Assembly: GCA_038896535.1 (NCBI GenBank)
Contig: JAWACY010000001.1
Coordinates: forward strand, 32,001-96,000
Origin: Candidatus Anstonellales archaeon
GTDB taxonomy: Archaea; Micrarchaeota; Micrarchaeia; Anstonellales; J096
Length of the DNA: 64,000 nucleotides
Direction: 5' to 3'
Shown: positions 9,986 through 32,258 of the stretch, in pieces
Numbering within the stretch: position 1 is the stretch's first letter
Layout: the number at the start of each line of letters is the position of its first letter
Program-made: the position numbers and the translations under genes
Notes under the pieces: model-generated
Database searches by the model: none
What the model saw: only the letters and a program-made list of their open reading frames with translations
Told to the model about the DNA's origin: nothing

Positions 9986-10235
9986 ATAAGAAGGCCTGTG
10001 TATAAGGGTGCGCACCTTCTTACTTCTTATAGGTTATAACATGGGGCTGGAAGATAATAAGAAGGCCTGTGTATAAGGGTGCGCACCTTCTTACTTCTTA
10101 TAGGTTATAACATGGGGCTGGAAGATAATAAGAAGGCCTGTGTATAAGGGTTAGCGCCTTCTACTTCTTATAGGGTATAATAAGGGTTTGGATGATAATA
10201 AGAAGGCCTGTGTAGAAGGGTGAGCGCCTTCTTAT
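9986..10235. repeat. Tandem array 1 of palindromic 70-71 bp repeats (about 3.5 units), abutting the tRNA-Arg(TCG) 3' end
   Basis: ATAAGAAGGC starts at 9986, 10057, 10128, 10198; units 1 and 2 are identical; each unit has the TAAGAAGG...CCTTCT(T)A inverted repeat. Confidence 0.95.
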
Positions 10236-10309
10236 GGGCCAGGAGGGATTTGAACCCTCGACCTGCTGGTCCGAAGCCAGCCGCTCTGTCCAAGCTGAGC
10301 TACAGGCCC
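10235..10309 (-). tRNA. tRNA-Arg(TCG)
   Basis: GGGCCTGTAGCTCAGCTTGGACAGAGCG-GCTGG CT TCG GA CCAGC-AGGTCGAGGGTTCAAATCCCTCCTGGCCCA; CCA not encoded. Confidence 0.95.
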
Positions 10310-10352
10310 AAAAGCAACATGTATTTAAAATGTTTCCTTTTAAAAATATTTA

Positions 10353-10688
10353 ATGAGGGCTCCTTGTTTTAAAGAATGTCCAGAATTAAGCAAAGCATTA
10401 AAACCGCTAAATATAGATTATTATGCTGTTTCATTTATATTAAGAAATTCCACTAAATTATATAACAAGTTTTCACACATAACAGAAAATGAAATGAAAA
10501 AACTTATATTGTATTATGCAAGAAATGGTAAATTACTTGTTATACTTAATGCCATTATATACAATGAACCCAATATCAATTTCTCTAATTTCAAAGAAGT
10601 TGCAGAGAAGAAAGGCCAATTAAAGTTTCCATTTAAAGTCTTTGAACCATTTGAAGAAGAAAAAATGGATAGATTTTTAAATACTTAA
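10353..10688 (+). CDS. Hypothetical protein
   Basis: 111-aa ORF filling the gap between the tRNA and the PRC-barrel gene; no motif recognised. Confidence 0.6.
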   Translation: MRAPCFKECPELSKALKPLNIDYYAVSFILRNSTKLYNKFSHITENEMKKLILYYARNGKLLVILNAIIYNEPNINFSNFKEVAEKKGQLKFPFKVFEPFEEEKMDRFLNT

Positions 10689-10713
10689 TATAAAATAGCA
10701 TAAAGGTGGTATT

Positions 10714-10986
10714 ATGGCAAAATACCTTTTGGCAAAACAGATAACAGGAAGAATGGTAATAACCAACGAGGGAGAAGAATTTGGTAGAGTAGTGGACTTA
10801 AATGTAAATGAACTTACTGGGGATATAGAAGATCTCATAATAGATCCAAATCCTGATAACACGAGCCTCGAGCAGTTAAGGACAGAAGATGATTATGTAT
10901 TGATCCCATTTAACAGTGTGCTAGCTGTTGGAGATTATTTAATAGTAGACAAGAGGCGTCTTTTTGAAAGTAGCAGGAATAGATGA
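10714..10986 (+). CDS. PRC-barrel domain protein (possibly CdpB-like cell division protein)
   Basis: GRMVITNEGEEFGRVVDL.VNELTGDI, IPF..V.AVGDYLIV; AAGGTGG SD-like site upstream. Confidence 0.88.
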   Translation: MAKYLLAKQITGRMVITNEGEEFGRVVDLNVNELTGDIEDLIIDPNPDNTSLEQLRTEDDYVLIPFNSVLAVGDYLIVDKRRLFESSRNR

Positions 10987-11575
10987 AGCTGGAAGAGGCT
11001 CTTTAATAGGGCCTATTGTTATTGCAATATTTATTACCAGTTCCCCAGAGAAGCTTGGGACATTAAAAGATTCAAAGAAGTTAACAAAAAGACAACGAGC
11101 ATTCTTATACAAAAAATTAAAGCATATGGGCGAGTTCGAAGTAATAAAAATATGGCCCACACAGATAGATGAGAGAAATATAAATTTACTTGAACTGGAA
11201 AGTATAAAGGCATTATTAAAAAAACACAAACCAGACAAAGTTTATATAGATGCATTTACAAAAGACAAAAACATTTTTTCATATCCTGGGGTAGATGTTA
11301 TAGCAGAGCATAAAGCAGACGAAAAGTATAGTGTTGTTGCTGCTGCCAGCATTATAGCAAAAGTGATAAGAGATGCTGAAATAAACAAGTTGAAAAGACA
11401 GGTTGGTGATTTTGGTTCCGGTTATCCTTCAGATCAAAAAACAATAGCATTTGTTGAAAAAAACATGGATAAACTTGAAAAAGAAAAAATAATAAGAAAG
11501 AAATGGGAGACATATAAAAGAATAAAGGAACCCAAACAAAAAAAGATAAACTTTGACGAAGTTGATAATAGTTAA
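10964..11575 (+). CDS. rnhB: Ribonuclease HII
   Basis: GIDEAGRG..IGP, KDSKKL, HKADEKY..VAAASIIAKV.RD, FGSGYPSD; TTG start. Confidence 0.95.
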   Translation: MKVAGIDEAGRGSLIGPIVIAIFITSSPEKLGTLKDSKKLTKRQRAFLYKKLKHMGEFEVIKIWPTQIDERNINLLELESIKALLKKHKPDKVYIDAFTKDKNIFSYPGVDVIAEHKADEKYSVVAAASIIAKVIRDAEINKLKRQVGDFGSGYPSDQKTIAFVEKNMDKLEKEKIIRKKWETYKRIKEPKQKKINFDEVDNS

Positions 11576-12123
11576 TACAATTTTATTACAGCAATTTTTT
11601 CGTATTCTGGGCCCTCTCTTTTTAATACACTTTTAAATACAACGATCTCGCTTGCAGTAAAATGCCCAAAATCATGCGTTTTATATCTATTGACTTCTTC
11701 AAAAAACATCTTATCTGGTTTACATTTTATTCTTGCTATTGTTGCATGGCCCTTATCTGTTATGCTCCCAAATCTTACTTTTTCGCGCATTGCATTTATT
11801 ATGCCTTCTATTCCATATATGCCTGCCCATAAGACTCTTGCATAATCTAATGATGGAAAAAATCCAAGGCCCTTTACATATACGTCAGTCTTTTTTATTC
11901 CAATTTCATCTATTGTTTTTGTTATTTTCATTAAATTACTATAATCAACATTGCCGAGAAAATTTAGTGTTATGTGAACATTCTTTTTATCAACAATTTT
12001 TATACATCTAAAATCCCTTATCTTGTTTTGTATTAAAAGAAGCTCCTTTTTTATGTCTTCTGGTATTTCTATAGCGATAAAGGCCCTTATCTTACTATTA
12101 TTTAATTGTCTTTCCTCTTGCAT
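11572..12123 (-). CDS. thpR: RNA 2',3'-cyclic phosphodiesterase (2H family, ThpR/LigT)
   Basis: RAFIAI, two HxT motifs (HITL, HATI), FKSVLKREGPEY. Confidence 0.92.
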   Translation of the reverse strand: MQEERQLNNSKIRAFIAIEIPEDIKKELLLIQNKIRDFRCIKIVDKKNVHITLNFLGNVDYSNLMKITKTIDEIGIKKTDVYVKGLGFFPSLDYARVLWAGIYGIEGIINAMREKVRFGSITDKGHATIARIKCKPDKMFFEEVNRYKTHDFGHFTASEIVVFKSVLKREGPEYEKIAVIKLY

Positions 12124-12128
12124 AAACG

Positions 12129-12860
12129 TTATTTAAACAAAATTTTTAAATCACGAACACTACCAAAATAAAAAATTGAGTCCTCTTCTATTGCATATAT
12201 TTTCATTGCATCAGTATCAATATTTTTCATCTCATCACTTAGCCAATCATTGGCTGATAGCACATTTGTTCCTTTTGTCAGGGGATTAAAAGATGGCAAA
12301 ACAAGTAATTTTTCTTTTTCCGCCCATAAATATGCTCTTAATTTTACTCTTGCCCCAACCTCATCCCTTATTGTTATAGCCGGGTGCTCGTTTCCTATGA
12401 TAAGCGTTTCATTGCCCCTTAAAATTTTTTTATGGCCGTGTGATATGATATAGTTTTCAATTTTGTAAAAATCATGTTCTTTTATATCATCTAAATCTTT
12501 TATTATATTCTTTATGTAAAAATCATGATTTCCTTTTATTAATATAATATCGACTTTTTCTCTTATAAATTCAAAAAACTGTTTTATTTCTTCCCATTCT
12601 TGTATAACGTTTTTACCAAAACCTTGCTTTATATCGCCAGCAATAACAAGCTTTTTTAACTCATATTTCTCTATACAATATAATGTCGTTTTCAGCATCT
12701 CTGCTGTTTGTAATCTTGATGTTAAAAGACTGAGTTCTTCCATTCCAATATGCAAATCAGATATGACCCCTATATTTTTGTTTTTTATTATTGCTATTGC
12801 ATATGGAGTTAATGTTATACCATCAACAACTACAATGTCATCATTTTTCATGTTTATCAT
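12129..12860 (-). CDS. Metallophosphoesterase (Lhr-associated MPE, COG1407-like)
   Basis: SDLHIG, GD, KGNHD, HGH, GNEHPA, LPSFNP; adjacent to Lhr. Confidence 0.88.
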   Translation of the reverse strand: MINMKNDDIVVVDGITLTPYAIAIIKNKNIGVISDLHIGMEELSLLTSRLQTAEMLKTTLYCIEKYELKKLVIAGDIKQGFGKNVIQEWEEIKQFFEFIREKVDIILIKGNHDFYIKNIIKDLDDIKEHDFYKIENYIISHGHKKILRGNETLIIGNEHPAITIRDEVGARVKLRAYLWAEKEKLLVLPSFNPLTKGTNVLSANDWLSDEMKNIDTDAMKIYAIEEDSIFYFGSVRDLKILFK

Positions 12861-15418
12861 TATGCTGCTTTGCTTTTTATTGCCATCATAACCTTTTCAT
12901 GCATCCGTCTTATAAATGCTTTTCTGTCCTCCATCATTATAACATCTCTTCCGCCCATAGCAACTATATTAAAAGCAAATGGTGATGGAACTTTCAGATT
13001 TTTTTCAAAATGCAATATTTTTGTACTAATCTTTTTCAAATAATCCAGTGCCTCATCAGCATGCATTGCTTCATAAAGGCATTCGTTATATGCCTCTTTA
13101 ATCAATATAAACTCCTTATCATACTGATATAAAAGTTTCAGCAACGAATCAGCTGATAACTGCTGTCTTGAAATACTTTTCTCATGTTCACCGTATCTCT
13201 TTAATATCAATAAACCTCTAACTGCAACTTGCCTAAATCTCCTTCTGATGAGCTCGCTCCACTCTATACCTTTTTTCAATGCATCCATAAATGTCTGTTC
13301 ATCACAAAAAAGTAGTTCTTTAATGTCCTCTTCATTTGCCCGTCTCCATCTTGGTAATGAAAGCATAAATCCATAATCATTAATACTTACTTTTATATTG
13401 ACGCCCTTTTTCTGGCCAAGCATGAATGCAAATGCTCTTGCAATTGCTTCATTTGCCTTTCTTCCTGCAAGTGTATGAAATATATAATTTCTAAAATTCT
13501 CATCTTCATATTCTTCAACAAGAAACCTGTGCTTATCAGGCACTATAGAATACGCTTTTTGCTCTTTTATATAGTTAAATAACGCCTCTGCGCTTCTTTT
13601 ATCTATGTTATAGTTGCTTACCAAGTATTGAAGTGCCTCTTTTCTGTCCATCTCTGCTATACGTTCTCTAAAATGCGCTATATCAAGGGCAAGTTCATAT
13701 GATAATGGAAGCATTTCAGAGAACCATGCTGGTATAGTTGGTTTCTTTTCCAGTGCTTGGTCAACATATATCCTGTTTCCTTTTGAATATGCAAATTCAT
13801 ATGTCTTTCCACCTAAAACAAATATGTCACCTTTAACAAGTTTTTCAGCAAACTCCTCTTCAACATTCCCAATATAATCACCATTTCTTAAAAATACTTT
13901 TACGTATGTCTCTTCTGGTATCGTGCCAACATTCATATAATATATTGCTCTTGCCATCTTTCCTCGTCTTCCAAATTCCTTGCCATCATACCATATTTTA
14001 CCATAAACATTCCTTGCTTCTAGCCCTTCGTATGAACCAGATAAAAATTCAAGGGTTTTTTCAAATTCTGAGAATGTTAAGTCCTTGTAAACATAACTTC
14101 TCTTTACAATGTGATAAGCTTCTTTAACATCATATTTTTTCTCTAATGCCATGCCCAATAAATGTTGAATTAAAACATCAAAAGGCTTATGTGGTAATCT
14201 TATACTATCAAACTTTTTCTTCAATGCATTGTGTGCCAATACTGTACATTCCAGTAGGTCATCTCTATCAAGCACAATAATATGGCCTGTACTTTTTTCA
14301 TGTAATTTATGTCCGCTTCTGCCTATTCTTTGCAATGCCCTTGAAACAGATTTAGGCGACCCTATTAAAACAACGGTATCTATGCTCCCAATGTCTATAC
14401 CAAGTTCCAAACTTGTTGAACAAACAACTGCTTTTAATTGCCCTCTTTTCAGTTTTTCCTCAGTTTCTAACCTTATCTTTCTGCTCAAGCTTGAGTGGTG
14501 GGTGGCTATTGAATCAATATATTTATCACCAAACTTTTGCTTCAAATGGAAAACAACGCGCTCTGTTGCACTTCTTGTATTGGTAAATATTAATGTTGTT
14601 TTATTCTTATCTATTATCTTATCTAAAATTTTATACATATTACTGCTTACAACTTCTGAATCTGTATATATAAGATCATCAACTGGACTTAATACGTCTA
14701 TTGAAATTAATTTTAGATAGTTTACATCCACTATAATACAATGCCTATCATTTCCAACAAGATATTTCGCAACCTCTTCCAAAGGGTGGACTGTTGCTGA
14801 AAGACCTATCCTAACGAAATTACACTTTTCATTCAACCTTTCTAATGATAAGCTGAGATGCGCCCCTCTTTTGTTGTCAACAAGGGCATGTATCTCATCT
14901 ACAATAACCCATCTAACATCTTGCATGTAAGAAGAAAACTTTTGAGCATTAAGCATGATGGCAAAGCTTTCTGGTGTCGTTATCAATATATGCGGGGGCT
15001 TTTTCAACATGCTAGCCTTTTCTGCCTGCGTTGTATCGCTTGTTCTAACACCAATTCTTATGCCAATATTATAACCCATTTCAGCAAGCTCTTTTAATGG
15101 ATCAAGGAGGTTTCTTTTTATATCGTTATTAAGTGCTCTTAAGGGGGATATATAAATGCAATATACTTTATCTTCAAGTTCATTGTTCTGCTTTAATGTA
15201 TAAAGTTCATTTATTATGCCCAGAAATGCAGCAAGTGTTTTTCCACTTCCTGTTGGAGAGCTTATCAATACATTTTTTTTATCGCATATCTCTTTAATTG
15301 CAAACCTTTGGGGCGGTGAGAATGTTTTATACTTATTTAAAAACCATGCTTTTATTGGGGGCTGTAATATAGCTAATATCTCATTATCGCTAAGTTCTTT
15401 TTTTGCAAAAGATATCAT
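12860..15418 (-). CDS. lhr: Lhr-family SF2 ATP-dependent helicase
   Basis: SPTGSGKTLAAF, SPLRALNNDI, ITTPES, VDEIH, GLSAT, TSLELGIDIG, QRIGRSGH, GTIP. Confidence 0.95.
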   Translation of the reverse strand: MISFAKKELSDNEILAILQPPIKAWFLNKYKTFSPPQRFAIKEICDKKNVLISSPTGSGKTLAAFLGIINELYTLKQNNELEDKVYCIYISPLRALNNDIKRNLLDPLKELAEMGYNIGIRIGVRTSDTTQAEKASMLKKPPHILITTPESFAIMLNAQKFSSYMQDVRWVIVDEIHALVDNKRGAHLSLSLERLNEKCNFVRIGLSATVHPLEEVAKYLVGNDRHCIIVDVNYLKLISIDVLSPVDDLIYTDSEVVSSNMYKILDKIIDKNKTTLIFTNTRSATERVVFHLKQKFGDKYIDSIATHHSSLSRKIRLETEEKLKRGQLKAVVCSTSLELGIDIGSIDTVVLIGSPKSVSRALQRIGRSGHKLHEKSTGHIIVLDRDDLLECTVLAHNALKKKFDSIRLPHKPFDVLIQHLLGMALEKKYDVKEAYHIVKRSYVYKDLTFSEFEKTLEFLSGSYEGLEARNVYGKIWYDGKEFGRRGKMARAIYYMNVGTIPEETYVKVFLRNGDYIGNVEEEFAEKLVKGDIFVLGGKTYEFAYSKGNRIYVDQALEKKPTIPAWFSEMLPLSYELALDIAHFRERIAEMDRKEALQYLVSNYNIDKRSAEALFNYIKEQKAYSIVPDKHRFLVEEYEDENFRNYIFHTLAGRKANEAIARAFAFMLGQKKGVNIKVSINDYGFMLSLPRWRRANEEDIKELLFCDEQTFMDALKKGIEWSELIRRRFRQVAVRGLLILKRYGEHEKSISRQQLSADSLLKLLYQYDKEFILIKEAYNECLYEAMHADEALDYLKKISTKILHFEKNLKVPSPFAFNIVAMGGRDVIMMEDRKAFIRRMHEKVMMAIKSKAA

Positions 15419-15470
15419 AATAAATATAAATAAGGGTTAGAATTTTTAATACAATAGCATAAATCTATTT

Positions 15471-16610
15471 ATGCTTACTGAAAAGTATAGGCCAAAAATC
15501 CTTAAAGACATTGTTGGAAATGAAGAAGCAAAAAAACAAGCAATTGAATGGATTGAAAAAGTTTTAAAAGGTAAAGAGAAAAAGGCGCTGTTTATATATG
15601 GAAGTACTGGCGTAGGAAAAACTTCTCTTGCTTATGCAATAGCAAAAGAATACAATCTTGAGCCCATATTTTTAACAACATCAGAAAAAAGAAATGATAT
15701 TACAATAAAAAGCATGGAGTTAAGCAATGCGTTTTCTGTTTTTGGAAAGAGGAGGCTTATTATATTTGATGATCTTGAAGGCTTGGCTTCAAAAGATGAC
15801 AGGGGAGCGATAAATGCAATAGTACACATCATAAAAGAAGCAAAAAATCCCATCATTTTAATAGCAAATGACTATTGGAATCAGAAGTTAAAACAGCTTA
15901 GGCCATTTTCAATCCCTGTCCAAATGAAAAAGCTAAATGCAATGCAAATAAAAAAAATACTTGAGTACATAGTCAAAAAAGAGAATATAAAAAATGTAAA
16001 TATAGATGAGATAGCAAAATATGCTGATGGAGATGTAAGAGCAAGCATAAACAATCTTGAAAGCAACATGGCTGCTTATAGAGATAAAAAAAGGGGCGCA
16101 TATGATGTTATTTTATCAATATTAAAGGGGAAAAATATAGATTGGGCAAGGAAAACATTAATGCAAAGCGATGACGATCCTGAGCTGATTATTGCATGGC
16201 TTGATGAGAATATAGCAGTAGAATATAAAACAAAGGAAGAGATAGCAAAAGCATATGATTATTTATCAAAATCTGATTTATTTAGGGCTAGAATCACGAA
16301 AAGGCAATATTGGGGTTTTTTAAGATATGTTACTGTATTCCTTGCTTTTATTGCGCTGGCAAAAAAACATGAAAGCCATGGGCTTACAAGATATGCTTTT
16401 CCATCTTACATAAAAGAGCTCTCTGCAACAATGGAAAAAAGAGCTAAAATAAAGTCAATAGCAGGTAAAATAGCAAAAAAGATACATTCAAATATAAGGT
16501 ATGTTATAAATAATTTCCAGTTTTATAAAATGTTAATATTAAAAAATAAAGAAATGGCAAAAAATTATTTTATGCTTAATGATGATGAAATTGAATTTTT
16601 AGGTGGTTGA
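15471..16610 (+). CDS. rfcL: Replication factor C large subunit
   Basis: EKYRPK, GSTGVGKTS, PIILIAND, GDVRASINNL, WLDENI, RQYWGFLRY. Confidence 0.92.
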   Translation: MLTEKYRPKILKDIVGNEEAKKQAIEWIEKVLKGKEKKALFIYGSTGVGKTSLAYAIAKEYNLEPIFLTTSEKRNDITIKSMELSNAFSVFGKRRLIIFDDLEGLASKDDRGAINAIVHIIKEAKNPIILIANDYWNQKLKQLRPFSIPVQMKKLNAMQIKKILEYIVKKENIKNVNIDEIAKYADGDVRASINNLESNMAAYRDKKRGAYDVILSILKGKNIDWARKTLMQSDDDPELIIAWLDENIAVEYKTKEEIAKAYDYLSKSDLFRARITKRQYWGFLRYVTVFLAFIALAKKHESHGLTRYAFPSYIKELSATMEKRAKIKSIAGKIAKKIHSNIRYVINNFQFYKMLILKNKEMAKNYFMLNDDEIEFLGG

Positions 16611-16815
16611 AGTGGTAAAAATTATATCAATAAGAGATGATGTATATAAAAAATTATTGAATTTCAAGAGGGCCAACAGTACAAGCTTTTCTGATGCAAT
16701 AGATACATTACTTAATTTCTACAAGGCAAAAAAACCAATATCAAAGCAACTTAGCGGAACATTGAAAGAAAGTGATTTATTAAGATCAAGATTAAAGAGG
16801 ATTATGCATGGCTAA
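16603..16815 (+). CDS. Putative VapB-type antitoxin (DUF217-like)
   Basis: KIISIRDDVYKKL..K....SFSDAI..LL pattern; overlaps the downstream PIN gene. Confidence 0.75.
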   Translation: MVEVVKIISIRDDVYKKLLNFKRANSTSFSDAIDTLLNFYKAKKPISKQLSGTLKESDLLRSRLKRIMHG

Positions 16816-17194
16816 AGATAAAATAAAAATTTGCCTTGATTTAGACATTTTGCTTGATTTTCTTCTTGGCGATGAATCTGCAGTTGAAAAGATAGAGATA
16901 TATGTAAAAACAAGAGATACTGAGTTATGCATTTCTACAATAACATTGGCCGAACTTTATATTATAACGAAAAACAGGCAGATTATTGATGAAATTAAAG
17001 AAAGATTTATTATTTTGCCATTCGATGAAAATGCTGCCAAAATTGCTGGTGATGTTTATGATTATCTTGAAGAACAAGTGCCAATATCGCAAAACAGGGT
17101 TTTTGTTGCTGCAACATGCATGGCAAATAATGCTTTTTTATTGACAAAGGATAAGAAGTATTATTCCAACATTCCAAATTTAAGGGTTTTATAA
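16808..17194 (+). CDS. VapC-like PIN domain protein
   Basis: CLDLDILLDFL, ISTITLAELY, ILPFD..AA..AG, VAATC...LLTKD. Confidence 0.85.
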   Translation: MAKDKIKICLDLDILLDFLLGDESAVEKIEIYVKTRDTELCISTITLAELYIITKNRQIIDEIKERFIILPFDENAAKIAGDVYDYLEEQVPISQNRVFVAATCMANNAFLLTKDKKYYSNIPNLRVL

Positions 17195-17871
17195 TGATTA
17201 AAGTAAAAAGAAAATTTTTGGCTTTTGCTACATTGCCATTTTTTATATTCGTAATATTATTTTTTCTGGTTTTTATAAACAGCGTTTACACAAAAAATGA
17301 ATCTTTAATAGATAAAACACAGGTTTTTCAGGCTGCAATAAAAAGAGCAGAACTTGAAGAAACAATAAGAAAAGCTGGTGAAGAAGTTGTTGAAGCATAC
17401 AAAGAAGCAAAGCAGATTAAACAAGAATTAGTTAAAGCTGATGAACTGGCTGGTTGGCCTGTTTTAAAAATCCTTATGGTAGTCAATATAGGCAAAGCAA
17501 TGGATGACTACTTAAAAATAGAATCAAAGATAAACACAACGTGTTTTTGTTCTTTTTATGATTATAACGAGCTTAAACAATCTTCAGATGAATCGAGCAA
17601 TAAATCCATGATTACAATACCAAGAAATGCTAAAGTTGGCATGAACTGCAATGAGTACATTGACATATTTATAACTTCACTTGAAAATATATCAATAGTG
17701 TTAACAAAAAATAACGTAAGATTTTTTTGTATTGCTCAAAACAAAAATAGTGCTTATATTGAAACATTAAGACAGGAGATAACATTAAGGGAGACAATGC
17801 CAAAAAGAAATGACTTATTAAATGTATTATTAAATGAACTTGAAAATAAATATGGCAAAAGCATGCAATAA
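17194..17871 (+). CDS. Hypothetical N-terminally anchored membrane/secreted protein
   Basis: Basic N-terminus followed by one hydrophobic helix; several Cys in the C-terminal region. Confidence 0.6.
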   Translation: MIKVKRKFLAFATLPFFIFVILFFLVFINSVYTKNESLIDKTQVFQAAIKRAELEETIRKAGEEVVEAYKEAKQIKQELVKADELAGWPVLKILMVVNIGKAMDDYLKIESKINTTCFCSFYDYNELKQSSDESSNKSMITIPRNAKVGMNCNEYIDIFITSLENISIVLTKNNVRFFCIAQNKNSAYIETLRQEITLRETMPKRNDLLNVLLNELENKYGKSMQ

Positions 17872-23713: not shown

Positions 23714-23736
23714 ATAGTTTCACCTTTAAGCAAAAA

Positions 23737-23830
23737 TCCCGCCGGGCGGATTTGAACCACCAACCTACCGGTAACTGCTTATAGCAGTATCAAACTACAG
23801 CCGGTCGCTCTACCGTTGAGCTACGGCGGG
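23737..23830 (-). tRNA. tRNA-Tyr(GTA) with a 22-nt intron at position 37/38 (intron 23773..23794)
   Basis: C1-G72 pair; ACCGG CT GTA G [TTTGATACTGCTATAAGCAGTT] A CCGGT; BHB central helix CUGU/GCAG with 3-nt bulges. Confidence 0.93.
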
Positions 23831-23940
23831 TATTTAATATAATGTATTTAATATAACGTATGATAATAATTAAAAACATATATGAAAATGAAAATTAAAA
23901 ATCATAAAATGAACTATTTAAAATGTATTTAATAATAATT

Positions 23941-25110: not shown

Positions 25111-25129
25111 AAAACAAGATATTTATTAC

Positions 25130-25588
25130 TTATTTAACTTCTGATGACTCAACTATTATTAATTTGCTTCCCTGAAGTGATAATGCTCTTGCTTTTTCTT
25201 GGATGTTATAGTTATAGCACTTTCTTATCTCTTCTATAAGTTTTCCTACTTTAAATTTAACGCTGACTGGTTTATCATTTCTAAAAAAGTACACTTGAAT
25301 GTTTTCTTTACTTTCTCTTTTGCCCAATTCATGTAAAATGCTCTCTAATTTTTGGGCATCATTCTCGCATATTCTTTGTATTGCTGCTTCTTTTCTTCTA
25401 TCTTCTCTGATAGCAGTCAATTCCCTGAGCATGAATAGATAACCCCCAGCTAAATAGATGATCAATGCCACTCCAAAAAGAGCTTTCTTATCAAAAAACC
25501 CTTCTAATTCTTTATGCATTGGTTGCTTACTTCTTTGCTCTTTTTCTCTAGAGTGTATCCTTCTAAAAATCCCAAATCCCATAAACAT
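25130..25588 (-). CDS. Single-TM paralogue family, copy A
   Basis: MGFGIFR N-terminus, one TM, EAAIQRICENDA, second Cys, C-terminal EVK. Confidence 0.8.
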   Translation of the reverse strand: MFMGFGIFRRIHSREKEQRSKQPMHKELEGFFDKKALFGVALIIYLAGGYLFMLRELTAIREDRRKEAAIQRICENDAQKLESILHELGKRESKENIQVYFFRNDKPVSVKFKVGKLIEEIRKCYNYNIQEKARALSLQGSKLIIVESSEVK

Positions 25589-25682
25589 AACATATGGTGA
25601 TAATATTTATAAATCTGCGTTTTTCTACTTTTCACCACATGATCTTATCAGTATGTTGTTATAATTAAAAAAGAATAAAAAA
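25562..25682. repeat. 121-bp direct repeat (promoter/5' module), copy 1; partner at 26662..26782
   Basis: One mismatch in 121 bp (25641 g vs 26741 t); includes a TATA-like ATTTATAAAT about 20-25 nt upstream of the start codons. Confidence 0.92.
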
Positions 25683-25705
25683 CATAAGGCTATTTATATT
25701 TAACC

Positions 25706-26119
25706 CTAATGACCAGTTTCTTCATCAAATAAAGCATTGCCCCTTTGTTTAACTTCATAACATTTTGCTATTGCTTCTATGAGTTTTTTTGTAGATTGAA
25801 CCACAACTGGGTTACTACTGTTATTACCATATACTTGAATTGTTTCGCCTTTTTCTGTCACCAATTTATCTAAAATGTTTTTGAGCTCTGCTGCATCATT
25901 CTCGCATATTCTTTGTATTGCTGCTTGTTCCCTTTTATCTGTAGCTGCTTTTATCATTGCGTATCTTATTGATAACACACTTAGTAAAAGTAAAGTTGCA
26001 AAGAAGGAGTCTATTATAACATTTTTATAACTTTCTTTGCTATCCAATTCTTTAGAATGTTGCTTACTCCTTTCTTCTTTTTTTCGTTTTTTAAAAATTT
26101 CAGAAAATTTACTTTCCAT
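25706..26119 (-). CDS. Single-TM paralogue family, copy B
   Basis: QAAIQRICENDA motif, two Cys; start moved to ATG 26119, downstream of the conserved TATA module at about 26139-26182. Confidence 0.8.
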   Translation of the reverse strand: MESKFSEIFKKRKKEERSKQHSKELDSKESYKNVIIDSFFATLLLLSVLSIRYAMIKAATDKREQAAIQRICENDAAELKNILDKLVTEKGETIQVYGNNSSNPVVVQSTKKLIEAIAKCYEVKQRGNALFDEETGH

Positions 26120-26220
26120 AATATAATATTGGGGGATATATTTATAAATCTGCGTTTTTCTACTTTTCACCACATTATCTTACAGCACACATATAAAAAT
26201 GGGGAGAATAAAAAATAGGG

Positions 26221-26688
26221 CTATTTAACCTCTAATGTGCCTGTGTTTTCATCAAATAATAGCTCTTCATTTTGCTTAGCTTTATAACATTCATCTATCC
26301 TTTCTCTAAGTTCTTTTATCTCAAATTCAGCTTCTACTGCTTTGCCATTGTTTGAGTGGTATCTTACCCAGATAGTTTTCTTACTACCCCTCTCTTCTTT
26401 ATATCTTTCTCTTAATCCTTTTAAAATGTTTTTGAGCTTTGCTGCATCATTATTGCATATTCTTTGTATTGCTGCTTCTTTTCTTCTATTTTCTTCTTCT
26501 TTTAGTCCTTTTAAGATTGAATACCCCATAAGGGCTGGAATAATAACTGCGGCCCCTATTAAGGTTGCTAGACGTTCTTGTTTTTTTATTCTATTTAATT
26601 CTTTAAACTGTGGTATTTTACTTTTTTCCTTTCCCTCCGCTTCCTCAGTCTTTTTCCTTTCTCTAAAAATCCCAAATCCCATAAACAT
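26221..26688 (-). CDS. Single-TM paralogue family, copy C
   Basis: MGFGIFR, TM, EAAIQRICNNDA, NNGKAV, LFDENTGTLEVK. Confidence 0.8.
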   Translation of the reverse strand: MFMGFGIFRERKKTEEAEGKEKSKIPQFKELNRIKKQERLATLIGAAVIIPALMGYSILKGLKEEENRRKEAAIQRICNNDAAKLKNILKGLRERYKEERGSKKTIWVRYHSNNGKAVEAEFEIKELRERIDECYKAKQNEELLFDENTGTLEVK

Positions 26689-26782
26689 AACATATGGTGA
26701 TAATATTTATAAATCTGCGTTTTTCTACTTTTCACCACATTATCTTATCAGTATGTTGTTATAATTAAAAAAGAATAAAAAA
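26662..26782. repeat. 121-bp direct repeat (promoter/5' module), copy 2
   Basis: Exactly 1100 bp from 25562..25682, one mismatch. Confidence 0.92.
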
Positions 26783-26794
26783 GTATCTTGTATT

Positions 26795-27235
26795 TTATTT
26801 AACTTCTAATGTGTTGCCATCAAGTGATAACCCTCTTTGTTGAAGTTCATGACAGTTAGCTAGTGCTTTTATAAGCTCTCCAACATTAAATTTAATCTTA
26901 ACTGCTTTGCCATTATTTGTATAGTATATTAATTGAATGTTTTCTTTACTTTCTCTTTTGCCCAATTCATGTAAAATGCTCTCTAATTTTTGGGCATCAT
27001 TCTCGCATATTCTTTGTATTGCTGCTTCTTTTCTTTTATCCTCATCAGCTTTTATGACTACATATACTATAAAACCAGTATAAAAAAATGAAGCCAATGT
27101 CATTGCAAGAAAAGTCTTATCCAGAGACCTTTCCTTTTTTAGTCTATTTAATTCTTCAAAAGGCGACTTTTCTTTTCTTTCTTCTTTTCTTTCTTGTCCA
27201 AGTTCTTTCCCTCTTCTAAAAATCCCAAATCCCAC
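26795..27235 (-). CDS. Single-TM paralogue family, copy D (GTG start)
   Basis: GFGIFRR, TM, EAAIQRICENDA, NNGKAV, TLEVK; 103 bp identical to copy A. Confidence 0.78.
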   Translation of the reverse strand: MGFGIFRRGKELGQERKEERKEKSPFEELNRLKKERSLDKTFLAMTLASFFYTGFIVYVVIKADEDKRKEAAIQRICENDAQKLESILHELGKRESKENIQLIYYTNNGKAVKIKFNVGELIKALANCHELQQRGLSLDGNTLEVK

Positions 27236-27256
27236 AAAAACATATTGTGATATTCT

Positions 27257-28390
27257 TTATAAATGTATCTTTTTTTCCCAACATTGTTTTGCTAACATGC
27301 CATTATACAAATAAAGGTCTAGGTGTTTTTTTACTTCTTGTCTTGCTTTTTGATGCTTGTTCAAAAATTCATTTATTCTTTTTACAGCATATTCTTTAAG
27401 CTCCCCTGTAAGCAGTTCTCCTTTTCTGTATGCTATTTCAATTTCATTAATCTTTTTGTCATCTGGTTCAAAGATGATTTTTAGATACTGAAATGAAACA
27501 TCTACTTCTGGATTTCCACCTTTCTTTTTGTGCTCCTCCACTGTTGGTTGTCCACCAGAGAACGCATATTTCATTATTTTTTTCCTAACTGTTTGTTCAT
27601 CATCAGATAAATAAATGGCGCTTTCTTCTTCACTCGAACTCATTTTTCCTTCCATCCCTAGCAATGGCGGTAAAAATTTACTATGCAAAACTGCAGTCTT
27701 ATAAAAACCAAAACTTTCTGCTATGTCCCTTTGTATACGCCAATATGGGTCTTGATCAATTGCGCATGGTATTAAACATTGTTTCCTTTCAAAAAAAGTT
27801 GGCAATATCTGGTATGCTGGATAAAAAATTGCTCCTATATTTGTTTCATTGGTAAAACCAAATACAGCACGGGCAGTTGAAAACGTTATCTTTTTCGCAA
27901 TCTTTAGTAGGGGTTTATATGCTTTTCCTATGTATTCAGTATCCCTAAATATAAATGTCTTATGGGGTTTAAAACCAAGGGCAGCTATATCCAATATGTC
28001 TTCATAAGCTTGTTTTTCAATGTCGTCGAGTGCAATTTCTCTTTTAAATAAAAATTTTTCATCATCTGTTATTTCAATATAAACATTAACATCAAACATA
28101 TCTTGAAACCATTTTGATATTATAAAAGGTATAAGATGACCTATATGCATTTTTCCGGATGGTCCCCTGCCAGTATAAATAAAAAACCCTTTCCCATTTT
28201 CATAACTTGACAAAGCTTTATCAAGATCCCTATGGCTAAAAAAATGCCCTCTTGATATCATAAAATGTACATTACCAACCAATTTCTTTATTTTTTCTAT
28301 CTCTTTCTCAGTTATTTTGCTAGTTCCAAATTTCTTTATGAGTTTTTCATAATCAACTTTTCCTTTCACTTCCCATGGAGTAATATGCAT
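27257..28390 (-). CDS. trpS: Tryptophanyl-tRNA synthetase (archaeal/eukaryal type)
   Basis: TPWEV, YTGRGPS..MHIGH, AIDQDPYWR, KMSSS, KYAFSGG. Confidence 0.97.
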   Translation of the reverse strand: MHITPWEVKGKVDYEKLIKKFGTSKITEKEIEKIKKLVGNVHFMISRGHFFSHRDLDKALSSYENGKGFFIYTGRGPSGKMHIGHLIPFIISKWFQDMFDVNVYIEITDDEKFLFKREIALDDIEKQAYEDILDIAALGFKPHKTFIFRDTEYIGKAYKPLLKIAKKITFSTARAVFGFTNETNIGAIFYPAYQILPTFFERKQCLIPCAIDQDPYWRIQRDIAESFGFYKTAVLHSKFLPPLLGMEGKMSSSEEESAIYLSDDEQTVRKKIMKYAFSGGQPTVEEHKKKGGNPEVDVSFQYLKIIFEPDDKKINEIEIAYRKGELLTGELKEYAVKRINEFLNKHQKARQEVKKHLDLYLYNGMLAKQCWEKKIHL

Positions 28391-28420
28391 AATAAAAATA
28401 ATGAATAAGCATTTAAAACA

Positions 28421-28780
28421 TTATTTATTTTTCTGAGGGGCCTCATTTATTTTTTGGCCCTTGTGCAATTGCTCTTTGCTCCCAACATCTTTTTTTGATA
28501 AATGTTTATTTGTATGCTCTAAATGTTCATCCAATGATTTTTTCATAAGTTCCATGTTAAATGCGAAAATGCCAAAATCAACATTATTCTTCATGCAAAA
28601 TTCCCTTAACATATTCTCCCTTGTTTTATACGGCTTGGACAAAAAATCCTTGAATTCCATTTTATTTAAATGAAGCCATTGTTTGAATAGCATTATGTAA
28701 TGTCTCGCTTTTTGTTCATCAATTCTGCTGCACAAGATATGGAGTAACATTTCAGTCAATTCTTTATCAGCCAGTCGCAC
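28421..28780 (-). CDS. Hypothetical protein
   Basis: 119-aa ORF filling the gap, GTG start; no motif recognised. Confidence 0.55.
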   Translation of the reverse strand: MRLADKELTEMLLHILCSRIDEQKARHYIMLFKQWLHLNKMEFKDFLSKPYKTRENMLREFCMKNNVDFGIFAFNMELMKKSLDEHLEHTNKHLSKKDVGSKEQLHKGQKINEAPQKNK

Positions 28781-28863
28781 ATTTATTTATGTTTAGTAAA
28801 GTTTTTAATGATGTATGGAATTGTAAGCGCCCTATATAAGCGCATGTTGGTTTAGCCTGTTCT

Positions 28864-29172
28864 TCACCTTGCTTCCTCCTCTATCTCTTTCCTGAATTGC
28901 TCTGCTGTTTTAGGAGTGCATTCGACAACCTTTAAGGTGCCATTATATGCACTACAAAGTTTAACTGCTTCATCATTGCAGTTTTTTATGACATCTTGAG
29001 GGGTTTCTCCACCTATTGAAGAGTTTATTGGCGTGTCTGCAATACCAAAATCTGTCTCACATTGACCGTGGCAGTAGCAAACATATTTTCCTGGTTTAAC
29101 ACTTGGTGAAATGCAGCCAAAAGCAGTAAAAAACATTATGAATAAGAGAACCAAAACCTGTTTTTGGCGCAT
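28864..29172 (-). CDS. Small Cys-rich putative lipoprotein
   Basis: MRQK + hydrophobic stretch + AFGC lipobox-like site; six further Cys; start moved to 29172. Confidence 0.7.
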   Translation of the reverse strand: MRQKQVLVLLFIMFFTAFGCISPSVKPGKYVCYCHGQCETDFGIADTPINSSIGGETPQDVIKNCNDEAVKLCSAYNGTLKVVECTPKTAEQFRKEIEEEAR

Positions 29173-29220
29173 GTGAATTTTATAGAATAACAATTTAAAA
29201 ATATTGCACAAAACCCCTAT

Positions 29221-30240
29221 ATGGATACTACAGAAAAAAGGAAAGAAGAACACATAAAATTGGCTATGTCTGAAAACGCACTCTATGCTAGCGGAAACGG
29301 CTTTGATTTTATTGAACCGCTACATAATTCATTGCCTGAGCTTGATTTTTATAAAATTGATACAAGGATAAGATGTTTTAATAAACTCTTCTCAATCCCA
29401 CTTGTAATAACTGGCATGACAGGAGGGTTCAGCAAAGCAAAAGAAATAAATATAAAATTAGCACTTGCGGCAGAAAAATATGGCATATTATTTGGACTTG
29501 GAAGTCAAAGGGCTATGCTTGAAAACAAAAAACTAAAGGATACATATGCAGTCAAAAAATATGCTAAAGGGGTATTTCTTATAGGGAATATTGGAGGTTA
29601 TCAGCTCAAGACATATAATATAAAGAGAATAGAAGAAATGGCAAATGACATTGAGCTAGATGCTCTTGCAGTGCATTTAAATCCATTGCAAGAGTTAATA
29701 CAAAAAGAAGGGGACAAAAACTGGGAACATGTAGAACAAAAAATAGCAGAACTTGCAGAGGCTTTGCGTATTCCAATAATAATAAAAGAAACTGGGGCAG
29801 GGATAAATGATAACATCATAAAAAGATTAAAGAAATATAACATTCATTGGTTTGACATATCTGGAAAGGGCGGGACAAGTTGGAGCAAAATAGAATACAT
29901 GAGGTCAAGCTTTGTTAAAGGTTTTGAAGAGTGGGGAAATCAAACTGCATTATGCCTTGCATTGTGCGCTGGAAAAGCGAATATTATAGCAAGTGGTGGT
30001 ATAAGAAATGGCATTGATGGGGCAAAGGCATTAATGCTTGGGGCAAACTTATTTGGAGCAGCAAGACCTTTTTTAATTGAGGCAATGAATGGTAATCTTG
30101 ATGGCTTAATAAATGAATGGCATGTTCAATTAAAATCATTTATGTTTTTAACTGGCAGCAAAAATATAAGTGCATTAAAAAAGGCGAGATACATAGTAAA
30201 GAGCTGTTGGCTTTCGAGATATTTAAAAGATAGATTATAA
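29221..30240 (+). CDS. fni: Type 2 isopentenyl-diphosphate isomerase (FMN-dependent IDI-2)
   Basis: RKEEHI, TGMTGG, GSQRA, HLNPLQE..Q.EGD, KETGAG, GGTSW, ASGGIR. Confidence 0.95.
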   Translation: MDTTEKRKEEHIKLAMSENALYASGNGFDFIEPLHNSLPELDFYKIDTRIRCFNKLFSIPLVITGMTGGFSKAKEINIKLALAAEKYGILFGLGSQRAMLENKKLKDTYAVKKYAKGVFLIGNIGGYQLKTYNIKRIEEMANDIELDALAVHLNPLQELIQKEGDKNWEHVEQKIAELAEALRIPIIIKETGAGINDNIIKRLKKYNIHWFDISGKGGTSWSKIEYMRSSFVKGFEEWGNQTALCLALCAGKANIIASGGIRNGIDGAKALMLGANLFGAARPFLIEAMNGNLDGLINEWHVQLKSFMFLTGSKNISALKKARYIVKSCWLSRYLKDRL

Positions 30241-30253
30241 ACCCATCACAAGA

Positions 30254-31423
30254 TTATATTACAAAACGCATTATTCTTATTACTGGTTTATTGCTGTCAG
30301 GCATTTTATTAAAACCAAGCAATTTTGCATGTGTTTCTGATACATGATATTTGCAAGCCCCCTCTTCTTTAAATACCACCTTTGTTTCAGTTATTTTATT
30401 AAAGTGTTCATCATATATAAAACCAATGGGCAGTAGGCTGTGACCATATTTAATAAATGCATTCAAACTTGGGCTTTTTGTTATTCTCATGATCTTCTCA
30501 GCTTTGCTCTTATCTATAATGATTGGACTTGCAATGTAAATTTTCCCATTGACATTAAAGATTGAATACATCGAAATGCCGTGTTTTTTTAATATATTTT
30601 TTATTCTCTGTAGCTTCGTTCCTTGTTGCATTATCAGAATGTGTTTCCCTTTACCAGCTATTTGTGAAGACAATGCATGAACAAAATACGTGCCAGAAGG
30701 AAGGCCAGCGCTTCCTTCTTGGCCTGTTTTTCTCGGCATGTTGCGAAGCAACGTCATTGCTATGCTGCTCTTTGCTGGCAATTTCATTTTCGGAATATAT
30801 TTTAATAAATCTTTTGCTTTAATTTCTAGCTCGTATGGTCTTAAAGGAACGCACATATAACCGCTTTTAAAATTATAAGTAAATGGTAATCTAACAATCC
30901 TTCTTGTATCAATAAAAACGCCTTTATCAATATTGAAACGTTCAAATTCTTTGTAAAGTTCTTTTCTGTTATTTAAAACAGCCTCTTCCCTTTTTCTCGG
31001 ATTTTGTTCTTTAAATTCTTGCTCATCTAAACAGCTTATATGGAACCCTTTTGAACCAGAGAATGCTATATAATTTATTTTATAATCGTGCTGTATTAAA
31101 TAGTCATAAAGTTGTAATGCCCTTTCTCTTGCTATATCAATATTTTCAATTAAACTACCTTTACTTACATCAATATCAAAAAATATATCAGATTTAAGAA
31201 AAACTGTATCATACTCTTTTTCTTTTTCCCTCTTTCCCAGTAATTTTGGGTTTAACCAATAAGAAATAGAATAATAGCTATCGTATGCTTTATTCTCTTT
31301 CAAGAATTCTAACAATGATTTGTAATGAAAAAATTTCTTTGTTGCTTTCTTGAACAGCCCAAATTTATTTACAAACCTGATATGCCTAAACTTTAATAAT
31401 GGTATTATTTCAGCAAAAAAGGG
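30254..31423 (-). CDS. PriS-like archaeo-eukaryotic primase; frame open to 31423, with no ATG/GTG/TTG upstream of 31315
   Basis: YYSISYW, FFDID, FSGSKGFH, DTRRIVRLP; 36 more open codons upstream of the called TTG encode FRHIRF, similar to the PriS REFGF strand. Confidence 0.8.
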   Translation of the reverse strand, partial: PFFAEIIPLLKFRHIRFVNKFGLFKKATKKFFHYKSLLEFLKENKAYDSYYSISYWLNPKLLGKREKEKEYDTVFLKSDIFFDIDVSKGSLIENIDIARERALQLYDYLIQHDYKINYIAFSGSKGFHISCLDEQEFKEQNPRKREEAVLNNRKELYKEFERFNIDKGVFIDTRRIVRLPFTYNFKSGYMCVPLRPYELEIKAKDLLKYIPKMKLPAKSSIAMTLLRNMPRKTGQEGSAGLPSGTYFVHALSSQIAGKGKHILIMQQGTKLQRIKNILKKHGISMYSIFNVNGKIYIASPIIIDKSKAEKIMRITKSPSLNAFIKYGHSLLPIGFIYDEHFNKITETKVVFKEEGACKYHVSETHAKLLGFNKMPDSNKPVIRIMRFVI

Positions 31424-31689
31424 CTATCCCTATATGCCCTCTTCTTTATGTAATTCCTCAATGCTTTTGCCATTCTCTTGTCTTTTTTACTTAACTGCCT
31501 TACCAATTTATCAAATTGACTCTTTAATTCATCTTCGTCAGATGTTGGTTTTATTTTGGATGAAAGCCAACTTTCAAGTCTATGATAAGTTGGCGTTAAT
31601 CTTCTTGCCTTCTTTATTCCTTGTGGTTTTGCTTGTTGTTTCTCTTCTTTGCCAAAAAGAATACTTTTAAGCCAATCTAAAAATGCCAT
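31405..31689 (-). CDS. Basic hypothetical ORF; probable N-terminal part of the primase via a -1 frameshift
   Basis: MAFLDWLKSILFG amphipathic start; ends AGC CCT TTT TTG CTG AAA TAA, overlapping the primase frame. Confidence 0.6.
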   Translation of the reverse strand: MAFLDWLKSILFGKEEKQQAKPQGIKKARRLTPTYHRLESWLSSKIKPTSDEDELKSQFDKLVRQLSKKDKRMAKALRNYIKKRAYRDSPFLLK

Positions 31690-31747
31690 AAATAATAATC
31701 TCATGTATTTTTAAATATTCTGCTTTTGTACTGCCTTACTTAAAAAG

Positions 31748-31819
31748 CGCCTCGGCCGGGATTCGAACCCGGATCGCCGGCGTGACAGGCCGACATGCTT
31801 GCCATTACACCACCGAGGC
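31748..31819 (-). tRNA. tRNA-Asp(GTC)
   Basis: GCCTCGG acceptor stem, TCGGC CT GTC AC GCCGG, GGTTCGAATCC. Confidence 0.95.
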
Positions 31820-31949
31820 TTAACAATTATATGCTAACAACATAAGAACATACCAACATATACAAACGCATCAATGCCAATGTTCTTATATAATTAGTAA
31901 TAAAATTTATAAATCACTATTTTTTGTTTTGAAGTGTTTATTTTATTTT

Positions 31950-32258
31950 CCTTCTTATATAAGAAGGCCCGTGTAATAGGGTTAGCGCCTTCTTACTTCT
32001 TATAGGTTATAATAAGGGGCTGGAAGATTATAAGAAGGCGCCAATAAAAGGGTTAGCGCCTTCTTATAGTGAGTAAAAAGCGTCTGGAAGATGATAAGAA
32101 GGCCACCATAAAAGGGTTAGCGCCTTCTTATGGGAGACTATAAGGGTCAGGAAGATGATAAGAAGGCCCCCATAATAGGGTTAGCGCCTTCTTATAGTGA
32201 GTAAAGGGGTTTGGAAGATGATAAGAAGGCGCCAATAAAAGGGTTCGCGCCTTCTTAT
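31950..32258. repeat. Tandem array 2 of palindromic 63-71 bp repeats (5 hairpin units), abutting the tRNA-Arg(CCT) 3' end
   Basis: ATAAGAAGGC starts at 31959, 32030, 32094, 32158, 32221; core ATAAGAAGGC-N9-AGGGTT(A/C)GCGCCTTCTTA; same family as array 1. Confidence 0.95.

Follow-up and report, generated by a model that had tools for sequence, protein, structure and literature searches.

Two tandem arrays of a palindromic repeat directly follow two tRNA-Arg genes in a 64,000-nt stretch of the genome of a tiny, symbiotic Candidatus Anstonellales archaeon (Micrarchaeota), raising the question of whether they represent an element that targets tRNA-Arg, a structured trailer of the tRNA transcript or an array of protein-binding sites, as a first-pass annotation made from the sequence alone had variously proposed. 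The stretch, hereafter the window, is C1:32001-96000 of assembly G000, where C1 is contig JAWACY010000001.1; the assembly has five contigs, 751,790 bp, 32% G+C and 91% completeness. The best explanation of our results is that the arrays belong to a species-specific family of non-coding hairpins in tRNA 3' trailers, an archaeal counterpart of tRNA-linked or repetitive extragenic palindromic (REP)-like repeats, and not to a tRNA-Arg system. The arrays lie at tRNA 3' ends in the orientation of the tRNA, are polar, have duplicated in place and cluster by isoacceptor and by neighbourhood, and no recognisable mobilising gene accompanies them.

Two hairpin arrays behind tRNA-Arg genes

The two arrays, 22 kb apart and sharing a hairpin core, were located where the first-pass annotation had placed them. 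The core AAGAAGG-N20-CCTTCTT, with at most one mismatch, occurs nine times in the window, four times in array 1 and five times in array 2, versus 0.04 copies expected by chance (100 shuffles), and no copy lies outside the two arrays. Both arrays were said to sit at the tRNA's 3' end and in its orientation, and the measured starts agree. The tRNA-Arg(TCG) gene does not encode CCA, and reading of the junction showed that its discriminator A is followed at once by the first repeat unit; behind tRNA-Arg(CCT), with discriminator G, the first unit begins 3 nt further on. None of the other four tRNAs in the window (Lys-TTT, Tyr, Asp and Ala-TGC) is followed by a repeat unit, again as described.

Array 1 consists of four units arranged head-to-tail on the tRNA strand. 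Each combines a 9-bp stem (TAAGAAGGC / GCCTTCTTA) with a loop of 18 nt and a linker, and in the final unit the linker is degenerate. Array 2 has five hairpin units and ends distally in a lone truncated 5' arm. Covariance-model matches had E values of 2e-14 to 4e-9 in array 1 and 5e-15 to 5e-7 in array 2, and both arrays, taken as RNA, folded far better than shuffled sequences, with z = -4.2 for array 1 and z = -8.3 for array 2. A third array, four units of the same subfamily behind tRNA-Leu(GAG), lies just beyond the window edge (Table 1). Array 2 was identical (0 differences) in independent Logan contigs from three other samples and two studies, which span window positions 30793-33126 (X2), 31240-32289 (X3) and 31722-32289 (X5); the likely source run, X1, was excluded from this comparison. 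No copy-number polymorphism of array 2 was seen in the contigs of four other runs, contigs being a form of the data that drops rare variants.

Table 1. Positions of tRNA genes, hairpin arrays and candidate terminators (window coordinates unless a contig is named)
Feature	Position	Strand	Evidence or detail
tRNA-Arg(TCG) gene	10234..10310	-	ARAGORN; Rfam RF00005, 67.1 bits
Array 1, behind tRNA-Arg(TCG)	9979..10234	-	Tandem Repeats Finder, period 71, 3.6 copies, score 414
Array 1, units	10165-10234, 10094-10164, 10023-10093, last hairpin ~9987-10022	-	covariance-model matches C1:42168-42234, 42098-42164, 42027-42093, 41958-42022
Candidate archaeal oligo-T terminator for the tRNA-plus-array-1 transcript (inferred)	9941..9945	-	first five-T run beyond array 1
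tRNA-Arg(CCT) gene	32261..32335	-	ARAGORN; Rfam, 66.2 bits
Array 2, behind tRNA-Arg(CCT)	31950..32259	-	Tandem Repeats Finder 31996-32259, period 64, 4.1 copies, score 356
Array 2, units	32195-32257, 32131-32194, 32067-32130, 31996-32066, hairpin 31960-31995	-	
Array 2, truncated 5' arm	31950-31957	-	distal end
Candidate terminator beyond array 2 (inferred)	31902..31905	-	first run of four T on the tRNA strand
tRNA-Leu(GAG), 5' end	1..8 (whole gene C1:31923-32008)	-	flank table
Array behind tRNA-Leu(GAG)	C1:31704-31918		four units, window subfamily

Arrays follow 13 of the 43 tRNA genes

We searched the whole assembly with a strict pattern, with BLAST and with a covariance model for which 35 distinct long units served as input, and the three methods agreed with each other. 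The covariance model (same strand, E <= 1e-4) found 68 units, every one of them intergenic and located in one of 16 arrays of 1-8 units; together the arrays make up ~3.9 kb, or 0.5% of the assembly. Outside the arrays, BLAST gave only one decayed solo relic and one weak match. Infernal identified 43 tRNA genes, and 13 of these (30%) are followed by an array, always in the orientation of the tRNA. The link to tRNA 3' ends holds genome-wide and is very strong, with 13 of the 16 arrays adjoining a tRNA 3' end (binomial P ~1e-14) and all 13 sharing its orientation (P 1.2e-4). The array starts 0-5 nt past the tRNA in 12 carriers and 86 nt past it in the case of tRNA-Leu(TAA).

The carriers are not restricted to arginine, and the idea of an element that targets tRNA-Arg therefore fails. 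Arrays follow all five Leu tRNAs, three of the four Arg tRNAs (GCG being without), both Ile tRNAs, two of the three Thr tRNAs and one of the two Lys tRNAs, while the tRNAs of the 15 other amino acids have none; 13 randomly drawn tRNAs fall into five or fewer amino acids with P = 3e-5 (permutation). A genome-wide search had been suggested that would ask whether the units always lie behind tRNAs and only behind those for arginine; most arrays do lie behind tRNAs, but five amino acid identities are represented and three arrays and the relic lack a tRNA. Isoacceptors have common junction types and common first-unit types. The T-arm core GGGTTCAAATCCC is present in 13/13 carriers versus 11/30 non-carriers (Fisher P = 7e-5, post hoc).

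No tRNA lies upstream of the three orphan arrays. One starts 9 nt beyond the stop codon of a polyprenyl synthetase gene, and the other two lie 24-48 nt from divergent gene starts (a major facilitator superfamily (MFS) transporter and PCNA) and ~7-20 nt behind AT-rich TATA-like boxes. The solo relic (C1:168270-168320) is intergenic, has 89% identity over 38 nt and is located 1.3 kb from orphan array 1. In the 86-nt spacer behind tRNA-Leu(TAA) (C1:207430-207514; L211), a T-arm-like piece in inverted orientation comes first, and after it a direct T-arm fragment of 10 nt that is fused to the first hairpin of the array. Paired inverted and direct T-arm pieces also precede tRNA 3' copies in the relatives G003, G005 and G006.

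Contig C2 ends (240146-240444) and contig C4 begins (1-122) within units of one subtype. The two contigs are probably adjacent in the genome, and the hairpin repeats evidently break this assembly. Four tRNA genes are unusually long (94-152 nt), namely those at window 23737-23830 (-), C1:180178-180287, C2:208747-208845 and C2:154172-154323. Given this length, introns are probable in these genes, which comprise Tyr, Leu-CAA, Ile-TAT and one Met/CAT gene; some of them were mislabelled or missed by ARAGORN without intron mode.

An invariant stem with hypervariable loops

Throughout the family the unit, read on the tRNA strand, comprises the 9-bp stem seen in array 1, a loop of 16-18 nt and a C-rich, nearly G-free linker. 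The linker falls into two length classes of ~12 and ~30 nt, and the units are 48-71 nt long, mostly 48 or ~66. RNAalifold pairs the stem alone and leaves the linker unstructured. The stem sequence is invariant, with no compensatory change within the 9 bp. The covariation check that had been proposed could demonstrate none in these units; variation on both sides is limited to a single additional pair, which scores no better than shuffles. Because the stem never varies, covariation provides no evidence either for or against an RNA structure.

The loops are hypervariable, with 42 distinct sequences among 65 hairpins, and appear as mosaics of a few left and right halves. Four loop positions (C17, T18, T21 and A22) are nevertheless invariant amid these variable neighbours, as are several positions in the linker. 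In most units of the main family, the loop's 3' half consists of 8-12 nt in which purines and pyrimidines alternate; the bases differ between units but the alternation is kept, and it is less regular in the window subfamily (9987-10234 and 31960-32257). The window subfamily comprises the Leu-GAG, Arg-TCG and Arg-CCT arrays, which lie within 33 kb and have A/T closing pairs and an ATCTTCC linker, explaining why the two arrays first noticed are so alike. TTTT occurs inside loops of this subfamily, while main-family units have no T-run of four or more.

We also looked for other identities of the units. Rfam gave matches to tRNA only, both in the window (gathering score) and at eight array loci (E <= 0.1). 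Searching for trans targets of the loops yielded only matches of 12-14 nt, sense as frequent as antisense. Some linkers have a 10-nt match, ATCCCACCCC, to tRNA-Leu at a homologous position, which suggested a relic of a tRNA 3' end; mean best scores of 16.3, versus 16.8 for reversed and 15.9 for reverse-complement controls, did not support this idea here. Peptide coding, as proposed for tyrT, was rejected as well. No open reading frame (ORF) exceeds about two units of any array, and the longest that overlap arrays encode 29-50 aa, three of them extending into the tRNA and one, of 35 aa, lying within array 2. A scan for bacterial-type promoters and terminators found nothing above shuffles; archaeal signals lie outside the models of that scan.

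Arrays are polar and expand in place

Polarity was measured on the 15 arrays with both ends assembled. The first, tRNA-proximal unit has a perfect stem and linker core in 13/15 arrays, and the last, distal unit is degenerate in 11/15; stem mismatches occur in 1/15 first units versus 8/15 last units. Whole units are identical only to other units of their own array (three cases, including three neighbouring 66-nt units behind tRNA-Leu(CAG)), and higher-order repeats of 114-117 nt are also present. Across loci only hairpins are identical and never whole units, with five hairpin types common to 2-4 loci. The identical units within arrays and the 114-117-nt repeats show that new units arise within the array itself, where one- or two-unit blocks are duplicated in tandem.

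Transcriptional context and search for mobilising genes

The first run of four T on the tRNA strand comes a median of 17 nt after the 30 array-less tRNAs versus 269 nt after the 13 carriers, for which it mostly lies 16-172 nt past the array end (25 nt past the last hairpin for array 1). The assembly contains a full-length RNase Z gene (266 bits). Among the 15 genes called downstream of arrays, nine are convergent and six co-directional. The annotated neighbours are housekeeping genes, namely those for Sua5/YrdC, a DRG-type GTPase, polyprenyl synthetase, an MFS protein, PCNA and Tyw1. The Sua5/YrdC gene (t6A synthesis; window 9234-9824, +) is convergent with array 1 and ends ~160 nt away from it.

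The first-pass annotation had reported no cas gene, integrase or transposase nearby and had suggested a search for a co-occurring REP-associated tyrosine transposase (RAYT)/HUH nuclease or a tyrosine recombinase. For integrases and transposases the claim extends to the whole 91%-complete assembly: PF00589 (tyrosine recombinase), PF07282 (TnpB) and PF00078 (reverse transcriptase) gave no match there, nor did PF01797 (Y1/RAYT transposase) at E <= 0.01, and the suggested search thus found neither kind of enzyme. PF00589 was likewise without a match in the relatives G001-G004 and G006, so no XerA-type enzyme was detected in any of these six genomes, G000 included (84-93% completeness); serine recombinases were not searched. 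A type III CRISPR-Cas locus does exist, on another contig (C2:37560-45080; L236:2562-10080); it encodes Cas1 (134 bits), Cas2, Cas10/Csm1 with an HD domain and RAMP proteins. Its array (L236:8219-8704) has seven repeats of 37 nt each at a spacing of 73-76. A link between Cas1 and the hairpin arrays was rejected, as Cas1 is part of this separate locus, whose repeat is unrelated and non-palindromic.

Relatives carry other repeats at the same position

The hairpin sequence appears confined to this genome. We examined 60 relatives, of which 3 belong to the same genus, 15 to the same family and the others to the same order. None contained the exact stem pattern, and the covariance model gave six marginal matches (E 0.01-0.09), which we took as noise; this search scored 85 of ~900 first-look candidates per genome. 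Scattered copies without tRNA bias, lack of transcription and lack of conservation in relatives had been listed beforehand as observations that would speak against a system of this kind, and the last of these was observed in part, the sequence not being conserved. Gene order around the arrays is also unconserved in same-genus genomes (1 of ~35 flanking ORFs matched, at 46% identity), and because these genomes are so distant, the missing sequence conservation is weak evidence against a function. In public genome contigs (at least 112 loci), all but one of the matches listed were single hairpins and none came from Micrarchaeota. A metagenome collection gave 16 loci, none of them a tandem array; each had a single hairpin, matched in one case by two overlapping hits. 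A viral collection gave seven single hairpins and no array; these public-collection scans may leave out records of G000 itself.

The position behind tRNA genes is nonetheless occupied by other repeats in related genomes. We sampled eight relatives by their best-scoring tRNA genes, 6-10 each, and counted 3' flanks that are shared with the 3' flank of another tRNA or internally repeated. Such flanks were found in G003 (7/10), G002 (4/10), G004 (4/9), G006 (2/6) and G001 (2/10), and in none of those sampled in G005 (0/6), G008 (0/6) and G009 (0/7); in G001 and G004 the 5' flanks did not give a clean control, in part because tRNAs are adjacent there. In G001 and G002, arrays of near-perfect palindromes with 3-nt loops follow Ala, Val and Ile tRNAs. 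In same-genus relatives, a palindrome with internal T5-6/A5-6, resembling a bidirectional oligo-T terminator, forms the first module after the tRNA. G002 has ~190 nt of hairpins between tRNA-Ile(GAT) and a putative elongation factor 2 gene (assigned by eye from the translated N terminus), an interval that is empty in G001. The set of array-carrying tRNAs differs among the relatives.

Behind tRNAs of G003, G004, G005 and G006, which represent other genera of the family, lie units of ~80-195 nt, and these close with exact copies, 17-25 nt long, of their own tRNA's 3' end. These copies were found at 7 of 31 sampled tRNAs (L150 and L156 in G003, L169 in G004, L160 in G005, and L162, L178 and L188 in G006), and the 5' flanks have no copy except for the T-arm of a neighbouring tRNA. 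In G006, up to three copies of the 3' end lie downstream of tRNA-Ala(CGC), and a unit downstream of tRNA-Ala(GGC) carries the 3' end of the CGC isoacceptor. In G004 (L179 and L184), two-hairpin modules occupy the entire spacers from Lys-TTT to Ala-TGC and from Lys-CTT to Leu-TAA; located between co-oriented tRNA genes, these modules would lie inside polycistronic tRNA transcripts.

Comparison with known repeat systems

The closest known layout is that of the tRNA-linked repeat (TLR)/RtT family of Escherichia coli. The published account describes 22 TLRs (tyrT/RtT; rrA, rrB, rrF) at ten loci, one to five each, and gives as their hallmark a unit end identical, over 18-19 bp, to the upstream tRNA's or rRNA's 3' end (PMC8144298). 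Like these little-understood elements, the hairpin arrays are non-coding repeats placed directly behind tRNA genes (for TLRs, also rRNA genes), in the same orientation, with one to several per locus and at many loci. They are also predicted to lie ahead of the terminator within the transcription unit, most arrays preceding the first T-run. Membership in the TLR family nevertheless fails on the hallmark, as a copy of the tRNA 3' end was found in 0/13 carriers when the last 28 nt were compared with 600 nt downstream (the longest matches being 10 and 8 nt), although the relatives G003-G006 do show it. In addition, the units are shorter (48-71 nt versus ~100-180 nt), one invariant hairpin is common to all loci, and no curated Rfam family beyond tRNA matches.

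The resemblance to REP sequences, bacterial interspersed mosaic elements (BIMEs) and REPINs, bacterial elements mobilised by RAYT (Y1) transposases, lies in a short, species-specific, intergenic and clustered palindrome with a conserved stem, located in 3' untranslated or transcribed regions (in our case by prediction). Unlike REP/BIME, the assembly has no RAYT/Y1 transposase, most arrays adjoin a tRNA rather than protein-coding genes, the loop is large and the arrays are polar. Whereas BIMEs and REPINs contain inverted pairs, all units here are direct repeats on the tRNA strand, and opposite-strand matches are weak echoes of the palindrome. Nanoarchaeum equitans has dicistronic genes that combine a tRNA with a C/D box small RNA (sRNA), and a DPANN tRNA gene would similarly supply the promoter and the processing site for a downstream non-coding RNA in the present case; however, the units are repeated rather than single guides, and no C/D boxes were seen by eye on either strand, no motif scan having been made.

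The nearest archaeal precedent found is in Methanopyrus kandleri. The published account reports that about half of its tRNA genes have a palindrome, CGTTA-N9-TAACG, ~10 bp downstream, states that this palindrome was not found in other genomes, and speculates on a role in 3' maturation (PMC5217627). The hairpin family shares with it the character of an archaeal, species-specific palindrome just behind a large fraction of tRNA genes. It differs in forming tandem arrays of up to eight units with linkers, instead of a single short palindrome per tRNA, at 30% of tRNAs and also in orphan arrays. Apart from this palindrome, we found no description of archaeal tandem tRNA-linked hairpin arrays in the literature searched, subscription journals being outside its coverage.

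With CRISPR arrays, the hairpin arrays share a ~36-nt palindromic repeat in direct tandem, a degenerate distal end and an intact end beside a 'leader', here the tRNA, but the sequences between hairpins are conserved linkers of the two length classes and not unique spacers, and the cas-linked repeat of this genome (37 nt, contig C2) is unrelated and non-palindromic. Whereas attL/attR scars are bounded by a partial direct copy of the 3' part of the tRNA, no such copy was found for any of the 13 carriers; tRNA-Leu(TAA), with its 10-nt T-arm fragment, is a partial exception. Unlike tRNA-targeting integrative elements, they have housekeeping neighbours and no PF00589 match nearby or elsewhere in the assembly, again with serine recombinases not searched.

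A proposed passive trailer repeat and its alternatives

We favour, with a probability of roughly 45%, a passive repeat of the tRNA trailer that would be co-transcribed with the pre-tRNA, removed by RNase Z, amplified by unequal exchange and copied among tRNA genes by recombination. Presumably placed ahead of the first usable oligo-T terminator, the arrays would be transcribed from the tRNA promoter as part of the pre-tRNA, from which RNase Z may then cleave them. The common T-arm core of the carriers and the isoacceptor-typed junctions point to spread by recombination, and copying between tRNA genes could start in this T-arm sequence, through homologous recombination or gene conversion, and would need no dedicated enzyme. 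A benefit to the cell, if there is one, would be generic, such as a structured 3' barrier or a read-through buffer, and not specific to the sequence. The multi-hairpin 3' trailer originally suggested fits in its anatomy, that is, in the placement of most arrays between the tRNA end and the first T-run and in the presence of an RNase Z gene; taken together, the interpretations first proposed are supported in part.

Several observations weigh against a passive trailer repeat. The stem is invariant beside hypervariable loops, and some loop and linker positions are fixed as well, which suggests that some factor may recognise the sequence itself, something a purely passive repeat would not need. 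The tRNA-proximal units are intact, which is likewise at odds with a purely passive element. Eleven tRNAs have the T-arm motif yet lack an array, among them Thr(GGT), which is near-identical to a carrier in its 3' half, and three arrays and one relic lie away from any tRNA. Some 3.9 kb of junk repeats would be unexpected in a streamlined 0.75-Mb genome. Because of the TTTT in their loops, transcripts of the window subfamily may stop early. Finally, the assembly is 91% complete, and extrachromosomal elements would escape binning.

The invariant stem, the intact proximal units and the persistence of the arrays in a streamlined genome keep three other explanations alive. It is possible, if unlikely, that the arrays encode small hairpin RNAs or serve as an RNA sponge, with transcription from the tRNA promoter and a precise 5' end made by RNase Z; additional cleavage between units would then yield hairpins of ~36 nt or units of 48-66 nt, to which a sequence-specific protein would bind. 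Strict orientation and the 0-5-nt adjacency in 12/13 carriers are consistent with this, as are the stem without compensatory changes, the four fixed loop positions and the intact proximal units. The TATA-like boxes at two orphan arrays and the position of the third inside a co-directional gene pair mean that all three could be transcribed. The tRNA-sRNA dicistrons of Nanoarchaeum offer one precedent. Another is given by processed E. coli TLR sRNAs, which are reported to bind Hfq and CsrA in vitro (PMC8144298). However, such RNAs have to be reconciled with the lack of an Rfam family match and of covariation, of any sequence homologue among the 60 relatives or in the metagenome and viral collections, and of any loop trans target longer than 14 nt; the carrier set varies between relatives, and 1-8 copies per locus with decayed ends are what unselected amplification would give. 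We regard it as improbable that the units are scars or miniature derivatives of a virus or plasmid integrating at tRNA 3' ends via the T-arm, with its recombinase off the chromosome and each new event landing beside an intact tRNA and pushing older copies outward. This would agree with the newest-looking unit standing beside the tRNA, with the T-arm core in every carrier, with the T-arm fragments fused to the array at tRNA-Leu(TAA) and with the exact 3'-end copies in G003-G006. Yet no G000 carrier has a copy of at least 12 nt of its own 3' end downstream, and the linkers resemble tRNA no more than their reversed and reverse-complement controls do. A tyrosine recombinase was found neither in G000 nor in five array-bearing relatives (serine recombinases were not searched), Y1 transposase, TnpB and reverse transcriptase were not found in the assembly, no viral contig carries an array, and identical neighbouring units point to local duplication.

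The remaining explanation at the level of DNA or transcription takes the units as barriers that insulate neighbouring genes from strong tRNA transcription, whether as repeated sites to which a dimeric DNA-binding protein attaches or as a stack of weak terminators or roadblocks, and we hold it to be rather doubtful. Invariant 9-bp inverted arms 16-18 bp apart are reminiscent of a protein operator, 9 downstream genes out of 15 converge on the array, the first module of same-genus relatives resembles a bidirectional terminator, and M. kandleri provides a precedent in the single palindrome ~10 bp behind half of its tRNA genes (PMC5217627). Against this, main-family units have no T-run of at least four, the other six downstream genes are co-directional, one hairpin would suffice where 1-8 are found, no candidate binding protein was identified, and a palindromic DNA site would not need a strict single orientation. 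An assembly artefact or chance similarity is highly implausible. Contigs C2 and C4 do end and start within arrays, but nine hairpins stand where 0.04 are expected, array 2 is the same, base for base, in independent contigs from three other samples, and sixteen loci have a common architecture. Beyond these explanations, we consider it conceivable, though again unlikely, that the arrays reflect an undescribed tRNA-gene-directed system, in principle common to ultrasmall archaea and perhaps to bacteria of the candidate phyla radiation. In such a system, units would be added beside the tRNA end, which would explain the polarity, with targeting via GGGTTCAAATCCC, the tRNA promoter and RNase Z yielding hairpin RNAs, a factor recognising the stem, and no known integrase or transposase family involved.

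Significance for ultrasmall archaeal genomes

Ultrasmall DPANN genomes are thought to shed non-essential DNA, and yet this one keeps ~3.9 kb (0.5%) of hairpin repeats, almost all of it at tRNA 3' ends. In practice, such repeats break assemblies and could be mistaken for CRISPR-like arrays. The hairpin arrays are moderately interesting alone, and more so as one case of a recurring, undescribed feature of ultrasmall genomes. Related genera have different repeat families at the same position behind tRNA genes, some with exact copies of the tRNA 3' end like the E. coli TLRs, and this recurrence points to a general, undescribed process, which could be recombination or insertion directed at tRNA genes, or the production of small structured RNAs by tRNA transcription units.

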